Sequence record: NC_054921.1
Direction: 5' to 3' (one strand)
DNA from: Escherichia phage vB_EcoM_IME537
DNA length: 64,000 bases
A program made the translations under genes and the position numbers. The notes beneath the pieces were generated by a model. That model had not been told where the DNA came from. It was given only the letters and a program-made list of their open reading frames with translations, and did no database searches. Every line of letters begins with the position of its first letter. Positions within the stretch are counted from its first letter, which is position 1. Of the stretch, positions 11,896 through 55,168 are shown piece after piece.

Positions 11896-12705
11896 ATGCT
11901 TAAAGAACAACTGATTGCTGAAGCGCAAAAAATTGATGCTTCCGTTGCTCTTGATAGTATTTTCGAATCAGTTAATATTTCTCCGGAAGCAAAAGAAACT
12001 TTCGGCACTGTATTCGAAGCTACCGTCAAGCAGCACGCCGTTAAATTAGCTGAATCTCATATCGCTAAAATTGCTGAAAAAGCAGAAGAAGAAGTAGAAA
12101 AAAATAAAGAAGAAGCCGAAGAAAAAGCTGAGAAGAAAATCGCTGAGCAAGCTTCTAAATTCATCGACCATCTTGCGAAAGAATGGCTCGCTGAAAATAA
12201 ATTAGCAGTTGATAAAGGCATCAAAGCCGAACTGTTTGAATCCATGCTTGGTGGATTAAAAGAGCTCTTTGTTGAACACAACGTTGTTGTTCCAGAAGAA
12301 TCAGTTGATGTTGTAGCTGAAATGGAAGAAGAGCTGCAAGAACATAAAGAAGAATCAGCTCGTCTGTTCGAAGAACTCAATATGCGCGACGCATATATCA
12401 ATTATGTGCAGCGTGAAGTGGCATTGAGCGAAAGTACTAAAGATCTGACTGAGTCTCAAAAAGAAAAAGTCTCTGCTCTGGTCGAAGGTATGGATTATTC
12501 AGATGCATTCTCAAGTAAATTGAGTGCCATCGTAGAAATGGTGAAGAAATCTAATAAAGATGAAAGCACTATTACTGAGAGTATAAATACTCCTGATACT
12601 GAAGCAGCCGGACTGAATTTCGTCACTGAAGCTGTAGAAGATAAAGCTGCACCTGGTGCAGAAGATATTGTAAGTGTATATGCGAAAGTCGCATCTCGTT
12701 TCTAA
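11896..12705 (+). CDS. 22: Prohead core scaffold protein gp22
   Basis: 269 aa, E/K-rich coiled-coil composition. Confidence 0.9.
   Translation: MLKEQLIAEAQKIDASVALDSIFESVNISPEAKETFGTVFEATVKQHAVKLAESHIAKIAEKAEEEVEKNKEEAEEKAEKKIAEQASKFIDHLAKEWLAENKLAVDKGIKAELFESMLGGLKELFVEHNVVVPEESVDVVAEMEEELQEHKEESARLFEELNMRDAYINYVQREVALSESTKDLTESQKEKVSALVEGMDYSDAFSSKLSAIVEMVKKSNKDESTITESINTPDTEAAGLNFVTEAVEDKAAPGAEDIVSVYAKVASRF
12582..12589 (+). promoter_or_regulatory. Late promoter TATAAATA for gene 23, inside the 3' end of gene 22
   Basis: exact box about 135 nt upstream of the gene 23 ATG. Confidence 0.55.
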
Positions 12706-17238: not shown

Positions 17239-17263
17239 AAATGAAGAAAGGGGCCGAAGCCCC
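17239..17263 (-). terminator. Terminator GGGGC-TTCG-GCCCC plus T-run downstream of hoc
   Basis: hairpin then TTTCTTCATTTT on the - strand. Confidence 0.6.
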
Positions 17264-17268
17264 TGAGA

Positions 17269-18400
17269 TTATGGATAGGTATAGATGATACCAGTTTCTA
17301 AAGCAGTTTTATGAATGATGTATCCATTACGCGATTCTTGAACATCAACTTCTGGATAGTCTTTCATCATCTTCTGAAGAGTGTAACGATGCAAGTAGTA
17401 CTTACTATCTGGGTCGTCAGTTTTCCAATCTTTACCTTCTTCAGTCATTTTTTGGATTTCATCCATAACCCACCAACCGCACCAGATATAAGCTGAGCTA
17501 CGATGTGGAAGAGGATGAACATAAGGTAATTCACCTTCTGGTTCCGGAGCAACTTTATCAGTTACCTGAACTTGGCCTTCTGCTGTAATAGTTTTGCTAT
17601 CATAATCAGTGGCAGTAACAGTGGCAGTAACTTCAATAGTTTGACTTCCAATAGATGATGTATCAACGGTGTATACATTAGTTGACCCTTCTACAGGAGA
17701 AGAATCTTTCTTCCATGAGTAAGTAATTTGTGCTGCGTCAGGTGCGCCAGTAACATTAGCAGTAAATGTAGCCGAAGCATCCTGCTGAACATTAATAGAA
17801 GGAGGAGTCAATGCAATCTGTGGATTCATTGTCTTCTTATTAACTGTCAATGATACTTCATTAGAAGTAACTTCTTTTGTATCATAATCTGTCGCTGTTA
17901 CTTGAGCTACACACTTAATTTTTTTTAACTCCGCTTGTAGTAGGAGTGTAATTGAATGTAGCACTAGTTGCTTCGCTCACAGGAGAACCATCTACATGCC
18001 ACTGATACGTAGCAGATGCACCTGATGGTTGAGAAGCTAAGGCAGCGGTAAATTCAACAGGAGTTCCAATTACTCCAGCAGCAGGACTAGCAGGAGTTAC
18101 AGCTAAGGTAGTTGTCTGTGTCTTATTTTGAACTGTGATAGTTGTAGAAGCTTCTGCTGTTTCGGGACTACTATCGGCAACTTGATTGGTTGCAACTACT
18201 TTAATAGTCTTTTGACCGGCAGGTCCTTTTAGTACATAACTAAAAGTTGCTTCAGCTCCATCCTGTGGAACATCGTCTACAGTCCAAGCATAGGTAATAG
18301 TTCCACCTCCAGTTTCACCACTGGGTGTAGCAGTAAACTGCTGAGTCTGATCTATAACTCCAGTAGGTGTTTTAGGAGTTATATCAACTGTAAAAGCCAT
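17269..18400 (-). pseudogene. hoc: hoc (outer capsid Ig-like decoration protein) disrupted by a +1 frameshift in an A8 tract (plus-strand T8 at 17919-17926)
   Basis: 161-aa N-terminal ORF (17915..18400) and 231-aa C-terminal ORF (17269..17964) in different frames together reconstruct a ~376-aa Hoc; one fewer A restores GVKKIKCVAQ. Confidence 0.8.
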
Positions 18401-18409
18401 AAGTTATCC

Positions 18410-19090
18410 TTATTTTAATGTTACGAAAGAAGAATTACGTGTTTCACGAATTAGAACTGATCCGTCACGATTAATGTAGTAAATTAAGCTAAATAAAGTT
18501 TGATGTGCCGACGCGTGTTCAAAACTAGTTGGGTGAGATTTCCAATCCGGAGTTTCAGCAATCCACTGGTAAATCCACCAAGGAACAGTGCAGAATCCTG
18601 GATTTTTTCCAATCAGCTGAAGATTCGGACTAAAGTTTTCCGGAAGAGTAAATACAGACGGCTTTTCAGATTCAATAATCTCAGCTACAGCCTGTTCGAA
18701 TTTTTCTTCAACAAAAGGAGTATCTTCAATCAAAACATCGGTATTTTCAGGAATTTTATCCGTTTCGACTACTTCAATTTTAATATCAGATTTAACCGGA
18801 GAATCAATCAGAAGTGCTGCCTCTGGATTGACTTCTTCATCGTCATATTTTAATCCCTCTGCAGCATCAGCAGCATTGATTAAGTCTTTAATAGATAACC
18901 CATCAGTCTCTGGCATAGGTTCACTAGCGAGCTTCTGGAGGGCTTCTTCAATATCAACAACGATATTATCAAAAGATTTATTCTTTTTGACCTTTATACC
19001 AAACTGTTCAGCATATTCAGCTAATTTAGCTTTAGCTTCTTTATTATCATCAAGAGCCTTCAGCTCTGCAATATAATCTTTATCTATCAT
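18410..19090 (-). CDS. inh: Inh, inhibitor of the prohead protease
   Basis: 226 aa, synteny after hoc. Confidence 0.75.
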   Translation of the reverse strand: MIDKDYIAELKALDDNKEAKAKLAEYAEQFGIKVKKNKSFDNIVVDIEEALQKLASEPMPETDGLSIKDLINAADAAEGLKYDDEEVNPEAALLIDSPVKSDIKIEVVETDKIPENTDVLIEDTPFVEEKFEQAVAEIIESEKPSVFTLPENFSPNLQLIGKNPGFCTVPWWIYQWIAETPDWKSHPTSFEHASAHQTLFSLIYYINRDGSVLIRETRNSSFVTLK

Positions 19091-29562: not shown

Positions 29563-29917
29563 TTTTGAACTTTTTAGTACGCGTAATAGGCATGCGTCGA
29601 TTTTATACTGTTTCATTGTTTGAAGAGCAGTATCAAAACAGCATTAATGACACCAATTGGATTTCCACCCAAGTTTTTAAGCTTAACTAATGATAGTTTC
29701 TCATTAACACCTATCATTACGATATGCATCATTTTGTCGCCTGGTTTAACGTTTTATCTGTATCACCGCCAGAGGTGTATGTACAAAATCTAAATCCAGG
29801 AAGCACGCTTTCTTCGCCGGCTTGAATAGCAAAAATTTGTGGTATTTTATGCTTAGGATTTAAGTTAACAACCGGCGCCGAAGCGCCGTCAAATAATTAT
29901 GTAATAAGTTCCATGAT
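29563..29917 (-). pseudogene. Degenerate duplicate of the 5' ~350 bp of alt (Alt N-terminal ~117 codons) with stops and frameshifts
   Basis: about 75% DNA identity to 31620..31969; translation MELIT*LFDGASAPVVNLNPKHKIPQIF...TYTSGGDTDK...KMMHIV... mirrors the Alt N-terminus. Confidence 0.7.
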
Positions 29918-36828: not shown

Positions 36829-36860
36829 GAAAATAAAAAGGACTCCCGAAGGAGTCCTTA
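36829..36860 (-). terminator. Strong terminator AAGGACTCC-TTCG-GGAGTCCTT plus T-run
   Basis: 9-bp stem, tetraloop, TTTATTTTCC. Confidence 0.7.
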
Positions 36861-53959: not shown

Positions 53960-54190
53960 TTATTGTTCAATCAGTCCCATGTAAAATTCTGCATCTTCAG
54001 CATCCATACCATCACAGTATTCATTAGCCATAAATCGTTCAAGAACTTCTAAAGGACCTTCAATAACAATAGAAAAATTGCAATAATTGGGATCATCATG
54101 AATACTTGTGATACTAAGTTCAGGATAACGATTACGAATAATTTCTTCAATATATTCAAAATCAACGATGTCAATATCAACTTTAGCCAT
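53960..54190 (-). CDS. 76-aa acidic protein with its own RBS (AGAGGA), in frame with the gene 32 readthrough
   Basis: ATG at 54190..54188; [16 protein letters not shown]... Confidence 0.5.
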
Positions 54191-55168
54191 ATTGTTTTCC
54201 TCTTTAATCATCAGCAGTATTGCCGATAGTTGTATAGTACCATAGTCCTTGTTGTATGTAAACCGTTTTGTGAAAAAAAAAAATGGGTCCGTGTCATCAG
54301 CACTAGATGAACTGCCAGAGCTTGAGCTCATAAAATCATCTTCAGTTTTTGTTTTGAAGTCATCAACATTAAATGCATCCAAATCATCAGCAACTTTATC
54401 AGCTTTCTTAGCGGCAGTTGCTGCGGCACCGCCCATAGCAGCAGTTCCCATAACTTGACTGAACTTAGTGCTCAGTTCTTCAAACGATTTGAATTTATCT
54501 TTAGAAGTCATTTCAGAAAGGTCAACCATTTGTTCGAACAGTTCTTTCTGGAAAGATTCATCATCAATGTTTGGAATCGCAGATTGATTCAGGAATTTAG
54601 ATTCGTCGTAGTTACTAAAACCAGAAACTTGTTTAACTTTCAGTACAAAGTTAGCACCTTCCCACGGACAAGTTACATCAACCGGAGTTTCACCCATTTC
54701 AACATCAACTGCAATCATTGCATTGATTTTATCCCAGATTTTCTTACCGAAACGGTATTTAAATACTTTACCTTCATTTTCTGGAGCAGCTGGGTCTTTT
54801 ACAACAAGAATGTTAGCCCAGTAAGAAGTTTTACGTTTAACAAGACCGTACTCTTTATTGTCAGTGTTATACAAATCATTTTTACTGATGTACTGACATA
54901 CTGGGCAAGAATCGTAATCACCGTGGGTAGATGAACAGTTTTCAATATACCATTTACCATTTTTCTTGAAACCGTGATTTACAAGAATTGCGAATGGTGC
55001 TTGTTCATCATTTTTAGACGGAAGAAAACGAATTACTGCTTGACCGTTACCCGCATTGTCGAGTTTCAGTTTCCACTCGCCTTTATCTTCAGAAGAAAAA
55101 CCACCTTTATTTCCAGCCAGTTTAGCCATTTGCGCAGCGAGTTCAGCAGTAGATTTACGTTTAAACAT
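53960..55168 (-). CDS. 32: ssDNA-binding protein gp32 as read (402-aa ORF; conserved gp32 ends near 54287, after which there is no stop and the frame runs through a T11 tract into the 76-aa ORF)
   Basis: first ~294 aa match gp32 (zinc ligands H64, C77, C87, C90; ...[14 protein letters not shown]); 3' boundary unresolved. Confidence 0.85.

Follow-up and report, generated by a model that had tools for sequence, protein, structure and literature searches.

The hoc gene of Escherichia phage vB_EcoM_IME537 (NC_054921.1) lies at 17269..18400 on the minus strand of the 64,000-nucleotide stretch analyzed here (the window) and carries one extra A in an A8 tract, which reads as T8 at 17919-17926 on the plus strand and corresponds to nucleotides 475-482 of the gene. 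At 1132 nucleotides (nt), the gene has a length of 1 modulo 3. A first-pass annotation of this DNA had described a hoc gene broken by a frameshift in the A8 homopolymer, with 161 N-terminal codons ending in GVKKN-stop, the rest of Hoc in another frame, and a continuous protein of about 376 amino acids regained upon removal of one A. All of this was confirmed; the repaired Hoc is uninterrupted, is exactly 376 amino acids long, and reads GVKKIKCVAQ across the junction.

The 5′ part of the gene is a 0-frame open reading frame (ORF; 17915..18400, minus strand) that encodes 161 amino acids with the C-terminus ...TTSGVKKN, i.e., Hoc codons 1-160 followed by an Asn codon, and ends at a premature TAA (17915..17917) created by the frameshift. 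This segment comprises the Ig-like domain 1 and a truncated domain 2. In the intact A7 state of the relatives, the slipped tract (17919..17926) reads AAA AAA ATT, Lys-Lys-Ile, and in the window the Ile161 codon is made up of the last A of the run (17919) and the TT at 17917-17918. The remainder of Hoc, codons 162-376 up to the natural stop (17269..17918), continues in the +1 frame with no further lesion; the mechanically called ORF in this frame (17269..17964) includes ...QAELKKIKCVAQVTATDYD... and has the natural C-terminus ...TGIIYTYP. A8 in place of A7 is the sole frame-disrupting difference between the window hoc and its closest intact alleles. Two nucleotides upstream of the A run lies a GGAG (17929..17932, minus strand), a Shine-Dalgarno-like sequence of a type that can promote +1 frameshifting, which here forms part of Gly-Val codons and is equally present in in-frame alleles.

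The window belongs to a Tequatrovirus (a T4-like phage), its best matches being about 98% identical over 22 kb (PD112, GEP001 and CE1), and the neighborhood of hoc has a T4-like gene order. The gene is encoded on the same strand as inh, which is located directly upstream (18410..19090, minus strand), and is followed by gene 24.3 (DUF2774), 24.2 and rnlB; the same order is found in GEP001, T6, T2 and ACG-C40, and a position between inh and gene 24.3/rnlB is that of Hoc. Just 3′ of the hoc stop codon, a terminator-like hairpin AGGGGCTTCGGCCCCT with a T-rich tail occupies 17249..17264 on the minus strand. The best DNA matches to hoc are 92-97% identical and coincide with genes annotated as Hoc in hundreds of Tequatrovirus records.

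The domain content agrees with this assignment. In a Pfam scan, the repaired Hoc contains PKD at residues 101-157, a match that halts at profile position 57 of 80, and I-set at residues 193-277, both over the Pfam cut-offs. It also keeps the complete T4 Hoc set of Y293, H295, H299, R300, Y304, W306, W309, W310, Q354, Y360 and the ESRNG at 355-359, which are gp23-contacting or conserved positions within a protein whose capsid-binding domain spans residues 281-376 (PMC10385173). The segment that holds these residues (17272..17559, minus strand) is out of frame with the hoc start codon. By position, domains and conserved residues, the locus is hoc, but as written it would encode no functional Hoc, since the single frame that links the Ig domains to the capsid-binding domain is broken at codon 161.

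Tract length among relatives and in T2 and T6

The closest relatives of the window allele, GEP001 (97.0% identical), PD112, HY01 and ZJUN4, have A7 and an intact hoc, with GTT AAA AAA ATT encoding V-K-K-I; this A7 is the longest homopolymer of hoc itself. In T4-type alleles, e.g., that of TB004, a G breaks the run to give GTA AAA AGA ATT (K-R-I). At the DNA level, A8 is present in the window, ACG-C40, SRR34396944 and ERR3531242, and one further A8 allele is common to ERZ28582271, SRR8865578 and ERZ28496081 (metagenome and Logan assemblies), while A6 is present in CE1, UPWr_E2, SRR29423813, PM107, PM108, 101117BS1 and T2. The tract is thus A8 or A6 in at least 12 lineages besides the window. 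In CE1, the A6 hoc is annotated as two “capsid and scaffold” genes.

A protein search with the 161-residue fragment uncovered a series of Hoc N-terminal fragments, all of them ending at the tract. Fragments of the +1 type, terminating in GVKKN-stop or GVKKNQVCSSSNCGRL-stop, come from T6, PM105, ACG-C40 and several Logan/ENA assemblies; those of the −1 type, terminating in GVKK[L/S]SV-stop, come from CE1, UPWr_E2, PM107, 101117BS1 and several Logan/ENA assemblies. For PM105 (GVKKN, +1 type) and two ENA contigs (GVKKSSV, −1 type), the state of the tract follows from the protein tails alone. The backgrounds in which the slipped alleles occur are 82-92% identical in protein to the N-terminal fragment of the window, indicating that most slips are separate events. 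The tract therefore appears to be a recurrent hotspot that has slipped in both directions in many Tequatrovirus lineages.

The hoc run is present in more than 200 records. Among the 102 GenBank hoc rows in which the run length could be read from the alignment span, five have a slipped tract. A degenerate-pattern search of metagenomes recovered two hoc copies in IMG/VR and four in JGI, all six with A7, the other 22 matches being unrelated; exact 22- to 24-base strings with A8, A7 or A6 had no match in IMG/VR, a collection that holds few of these alleles. Two properties by which phage homopolymer contingency loci have been defined (10.1101/2025.10.21.683753) are found here: a run of at least six bases within an ORF (A8 in the window and A7 in relatives), and +1/−1 variants beyond those of other repeats (A6, A7 and A8, seen between genomes, not within a population).

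Hoc also varies in the number of its Ig domains. In-frame deletion forms of 164, 182, 224, 232 and 282 amino acids exist, as do forms with a duplicated domain 2, e.g., a 472-residue protein, and this variation presumably comes from recombination between the repeated NKTQTTTLAVTP and SGVK(K/R)IKC segments. In the duplicated-domain alleles, the second copy of the motif is AAAAGAA, of normal length, and it is the pure A-run copy that is slipped.

Two classical phages also have a hoc gene broken at this position. The T6 hoc is likewise 1132 nt long and is +1-shifted, reading GTT AAA AAG AAT TAA (AAAAAGAA compared with the T4-type AAAAGAA), and its product is the same 161-residue, GVKKN-stop form as in the window. 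Over the full 1132 nt, T6 hoc is 100% identical in AP018814 (Japan) and MH550421 (from an E. coli B host); the Logan SRR24085887 contig has the T6 tract sequence and the same 161-residue product, the full 1132 nt not being byte-identical by script. In T2, three frameshifts make hoc a pseudogene: one lies near codon 60, one at the A run (A6) and one near codon 331. The T2 tract reads GGAGTT-AAAAAA-TCAAGTG and leads to GVKKSSV-stop. The 1251-nt hoc region of T2 is 100% identical in seven separate deposits (PV958097, LC348380, MH751506, AP018813, OM339528, PV648363 and PV648364) and in the RefSeq copy of one of them. Together, the replicated T2 and T6 alleles show that slips at the tract are real and heritable, not only consensus errors.

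Neither phage is an exact counterpart of the window. T2, with its two further frameshifts, is in advanced decay, whereas the window hoc has a single lesion and no other damage; in T6, the run is broken by a G (AAAAAGAA) and hence less prone to revert, whereas the run in the window is pure. In T2 (NC_054931, 105359-106609), records show hoc as two or three “Hoc-like” fragments or lack an annotation for it, and a further 1-bp deletion in the T2 hoc region is listed in Supplemental Table 4 of 10.1101/2025.10.21.683753. A literature search found no report of a recurrent hoc slip, of hoc frameshifts or of a broken hoc in T2 or T6. Early work reportedly described T2 capsids without Hoc.

Length stability of other homopolymers

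Long A/T runs are strongly depleted in the window, which contains five A8 words (at two loci) vs. 29 ± 7 in dinucleotide-preserving shuffles and 10 A7 words vs. 84 ± 13; the hoc run is therefore not a chance product of AT-rich DNA. In the 64 kb, the only runs of at least eight bases are the A8 of hoc and an A11 that a deletion has produced where gene 32 ends, and there are three A7 runs, at 12098, 23508 and 44721, in genes 22, 51 and rnlA (assigned by size, order and the annotation of relatives). Even in its intact state, the A7 of hoc is one of the longest homopolymers of the region.

Homopolymers of at least six bases were compared between assemblies by flank-anchored run length, and split genes were sought by tblastn. 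In 786 pairwise comparisons of the window with GEP001, CE1, T6 and ACG-C40 over about 50 kb, hoc was the only coding run that varied. The same was true of 2237 comparisons among 13 assemblies within 10 kb on either side of hoc, where the one variable non-coding run, A5/A6, is taken as intergenic; in these assemblies, the A7 runs of genes 22 and 51 never changed length where they could be found. For the gene 51 run, no variant in length appeared in an even sample of 60 out of 360 records, and queries for its A8 and A6 variants likewise found none, with weak statistics (p ~0.07-0.1). In the split-gene test, hoc alone among the genes that are intact elsewhere was interrupted by a frameshift in the window. 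A generally error-prone assembly is ruled out by these controls, which fit slips that occur everywhere and survive only in dispensable genes.

The only homopolymer besides hoc that differed in length between the window and its relatives in the 50-kb comparison is an apparently non-coding T-run (A on the plus strand) at about 36835-36840, which follows a hairpin-like TCCTTCGGGAGTCC and has five bases in the window as compared with six in GEP001, CE1, T6 and ACG-C40.

The A11 run (54273-54283; T11 on the coding strand) belongs to an unusual junction, at about 54270-54290, in gene 32, the gene for the single-stranded DNA-binding protein (53960-55168, minus strand). T4 gp32 has 301 amino acids and gene 32 of CE1 is annotated as 909 nt, while the window gene reads 402 amino acids. 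In comparison with CE1, the window lacks about 65 nt, comprising the last eight codons (LDDLLNDL), the stop codon and the 5′ arm of a terminator-like hairpin, and a further 12 nt of the T-rich tail; the deletions, which create the A11, fuse gene 32 in frame with the next small ORF, which is Frd.3-like. Each of the 25 best phage records aligns with this region as two segments whose overall span exceeds the query by about 72 nt, and an exact look-up of the fused gp32 protein found no other record. The gene 32 end could be a real deletion or an assembly artifact.

Origin of the extra adenine

The extra A probably reflects a real and recent replication slip, from A7 to A8, at a site that slips recurrently, and it would leave the phage without Hoc. 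DNA polymerase would have slipped on the longest homopolymer of hoc, and translation of the resulting message would halt after 161 residues, yielding a protein with the Ig-like domain 1 and an incomplete domain 2 that is devoid of the C-terminal domain which binds the center of gp23 hexamers. Lacking residues 281-376, this product should be unable to attach to the capsid, and the virions, free of Hoc fibers, would be normal infectious phage with a bare capsid. The dispensability of Hoc, which the first-pass annotation had pointed out, is borne out by hoc null mutants that are fully viable (PMC3012670), and the phage is thus expected to remain fully viable. Homopolymers of at least six bases in T2, T4 and T6 were shown experimentally to be hypermutable by polymerase slippage, with a mean mutant-read frequency of ~3e-4 per run, and in agt and rIIA the reversion of run-based frameshifts is 1e3-1e4 times more frequent than that of point mutations (10.1101/2025.10.21.683753). 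hoc is absent from the main text of that study, and its tables list only other 6-base hoc runs.

The slip must be young if it is real. Past the tract, 15 synonymous and three non-synonymous changes separate the window from GEP001, and only four codons are unique to the window when it is compared with four relatives, three of them silent. The differences are thus mostly synonymous, with no sign of relaxed constraint, which places the slip as very recent on the scale of allele divergence. A recent slip is expected for a hotspot with a high rate and possible reversibility, and the window tract may be able to return to A7. Among the three options raised in the first-pass annotation, the last of which was a homopolymer sequencing error, a real hoc-minus allele is favored jointly with a slippage-prone tract, given the A6 state in seven T2 deposits, the +1 state in T6 and the invariance of other runs.

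Several points weigh against a real slip. The A8 is known from the consensus alone, at one of the longest homopolymers of the window, where indel miscalls are likeliest, and a homopolymer miscall in the consensus of a phage that is truly A7 with an intact hoc is a minority reading, to be kept in mind as unlikely but realistic. No public record with the exact A8 allele was found that would confirm it independently, and an exact look-up of the 161-residue product was also without a match. The downstream frame, free of decay, fits a consensus error as well as a very recent mutation; some of the slipped alleles elsewhere (PM105, PM107, PM108 and 101117BS1) come from single-lab batches; and the odd junction at the gene 32 end of the same window leaves some doubt on assembly quality. 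The comparison with gene 51 is weak alone, a slipped tract in 5/102 hoc rows vs. 0/60 gene 51 records giving a one-sided Fisher p = 0.095, and the 354 sequences returned by the gene 51 protein search fall in one cluster that could hide truncated members. Yet miscalls should equally affect the A7 runs of the essential genes 22 and 51, where none was seen (13 assemblies and 60 gene 51 records). The other anchorable coding runs of six or more bases, including the three other A7 runs, are at the expected length, no other conserved gene is frameshifted in the assembly, and homopolymers of the same assemblies other than the hoc tract do not vary in coding sequence. The tract has slipped reproducibly in T2, in all seven deposits, and one slipped allele has turned up repeatedly among metagenome and Logan assemblies, which makes real slips at this position common enough to be the default expectation.

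The earlier suggestion of an on/off tract stands as far as a mutational hotspot is concerned, A6, A7 and A8 being found in many lineages; no evidence was obtained for a selected or programmed switch. It is improbable, though worth considering, that A7 is kept by selection as a contingency (phase-variation) locus, a reversible switch that maintains mixed Hoc-plus and Hoc-minus populations and hedges mucus-adherent, antigenic particles against bare ones, with the window caught in the OFF state. The slips are bidirectional and spread over many lineages, and all singly shifted alleles examined retain an undamaged downstream frame, as would be the case for short-lived or reverting OFF states. Runs of at least seven bases are about 8-fold depleted genome-wide, yet the hoc run persists in its more than 200 records; reversible homopolymer switches are known in T2 agt and T4 rIIA (10.1101/2025.10.21.683753); and trade-offs are plausible for Hoc, with mucus adherence and virion clustering or dispersal on the one side and high antigenicity on the other. 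However, A7 arises whenever Lys-Lys-Ile uses AAA for both lysines, with no need for selection, and the T4-type alleles, in which AGA (Arg) breaks the run, show that the run is dispensable for Hoc function. Slipped alleles make up a few percent of the records and are absent from the six JGI and IMG/VR copies, a frequency that fits mutation-selection balance in a weakly selected gene; the three frameshifts of T2 represent one-way decay, and no advantage of Hoc loss was found in the literature consulted.

Two further readings, in which the A8 allele would still yield a Hoc protein, are both very improbable. In one, full-length Hoc would be made by recoding, either by RNA polymerase dropping an A or by a ribosomal +1 shift on AAA-AAA-A. 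The shift needed is indeed +1, tRNA-Lys can re-pair perfectly one base forward in the A run, and the GGAG 2 nt upstream loosely resembles the element that stimulates the +1 shift in prfB; for runs of eight As, productive transcriptional slippage was proposed for some insertion sequence (IS) elements and reported for human apoB (PMC1088944). But the GGAG forms Gly-Val codons in intact alleles too, the 0 frame continues with AAU, an ordinary sense codon with no obvious pause, and the stop comes one codon later. Transcriptional rescue would require one A fewer in the mRNA, yet a reporter study of E. coli RNA polymerase detected neither deletion-type rescue on the poly(A) runs tested nor slippage below eight As (PMC6260861); selection against such runs is evident at about nine bases in many bacterial genomes (PMC1088944), a level that the eight-base hoc run does not reach. 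Moreover, the out-of-frame arrangement is not conserved: the great majority of alleles are in frame, the shifts go both ways, and the A6 alleles would need the opposite correction. A −1 frameshift on the window tract gives KKKLSV-stop, not Hoc.

In the other reading, the downstream segment would be translated from an internal start as a short Hoc made of domain 3 and the capsid-binding domain. Gene callers annotate the downstream ORF in CE1, T6, UPWr_E2 and others, and naturally short Hoc proteins exist, both the in-frame deletion forms of 164-282 amino acids and Hoc-like proteins with one or two Ig domains (PMC10385173). The three in-frame internal candidate starts, TTG184, ATG191 and TTG197, have no Shine-Dalgarno-like motif in the 18 nt upstream, which makes independent translation of the downstream segment unlikely, and no Hoc-frame start is found beside the premature stop, which makes translational coupling unlikely. 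Reinitiation at the GTG next to the stop would be in the wrong frame.

Comparable systems and consequences of a probable Hoc loss

The classical frameshift hotspots of T4 lie at A-runs, where Streisinger-type slipped mispairing operates, as in the rII hotspots. They resemble the hoc tract in that frameshifts arise through replication slippage at a rate that rises with run length; they differ in that they were seen as laboratory mutants of rII and lysozyme genes, whereas the hoc variants are standing variation among natural isolates in a structural gene. Campylobacter phages have hypermutable poly-G tracts in receptor-binding proteins, with demonstrated phase variation and effects on host range. 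In both cases a homopolymer makes an on/off change in a virion surface protein, but the Campylobacter phage tracts are longer G-runs, while hoc has a short A-run in a decoration protein and no demonstrated benefit.

The contingency loci of T-even phages, the A-run of T2 agt and the A6 of T4 rIIA (10.1101/2025.10.21.683753), are also comparable. Like hoc, they consist of an A-run within a Tequatrovirus ORF that gains or loses one base, the gene inactivated is non-essential in the laboratory, and the same run is struck repeatedly. By contrast, agt and rIIA have a measured reversibility, rate elevation and fitness trade-off, whereas hoc is known from fixed differences between genomes. Genes expressed through transcriptional slippage (Citrobacter tssM, Shigella mxiE and Thermus dnaX) share with hoc an out-of-frame gene split at an A/T run. 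In tssM and in the slippage-rescued poly(A) genes of endosymbionts, the runs are of at least nine bases and the arrangement is conserved across lineages; hoc differs in having a run of eight and an arrangement that is not conserved. Nine-base runs are also used by Shigella mxiE and Thermus dnaX (PMC1088944). The hoc tract belongs mechanistically with the homopolymer hotspots of T-even phages, and a slip of this kind is an expected outcome in a dispensable gene, useful to know of but not surprising.

Hoc underlies the “bacteriophage adherence to mucus” model, serves as a standard platform for phage display and vaccines, and is relevant to the persistence and immune visibility of therapeutic T4-like phages. 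A few percent of sequenced Tequatrovirus isolates, as well as T2 and T6, appear to be Hoc-less through one slippery run, and annotation pipelines that call two “capsid and scaffold proteins” at the locus conceal a phenotype. During propagation, a phage stock may shift from Hoc-plus to Hoc-minus or back, and comparisons of mucus binding or immunogenicity among T-even phages should begin with a check of the hoc tract. If the run were a selected switch, the window, T6, T2 and the few percent of isolates would have been caught OFF, and capsid decoration would be phase-variable in well-studied phages.

Other split or decayed genes were noted along the way. In ACG-C40 (JN986846, 15832-16836), rnlB (RNA ligase 2) is annotated in two pieces beside the split hoc, so that two non-essential genes are disrupted within 3 kb. 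In CE1 (ON229909, 43487-46339), the large terminase gene 17 is annotated as two pieces that flank a 600-nt ORF, and the annotation likewise breaks up the ribonucleotide reductase beta-subunit gene. Each case resembles the insertion of a mobile element or an intron, and the window shows neither. At about 29569-29914 on its minus strand, the window holds what remains, after several frameshifts, of a second Alt-like (ADP-ribosyltransferase) paralogue, which is intact as a 685-amino-acid ORF in GEP001 and T6 and present as the same decayed remnant in CE1 and ACG-C40.

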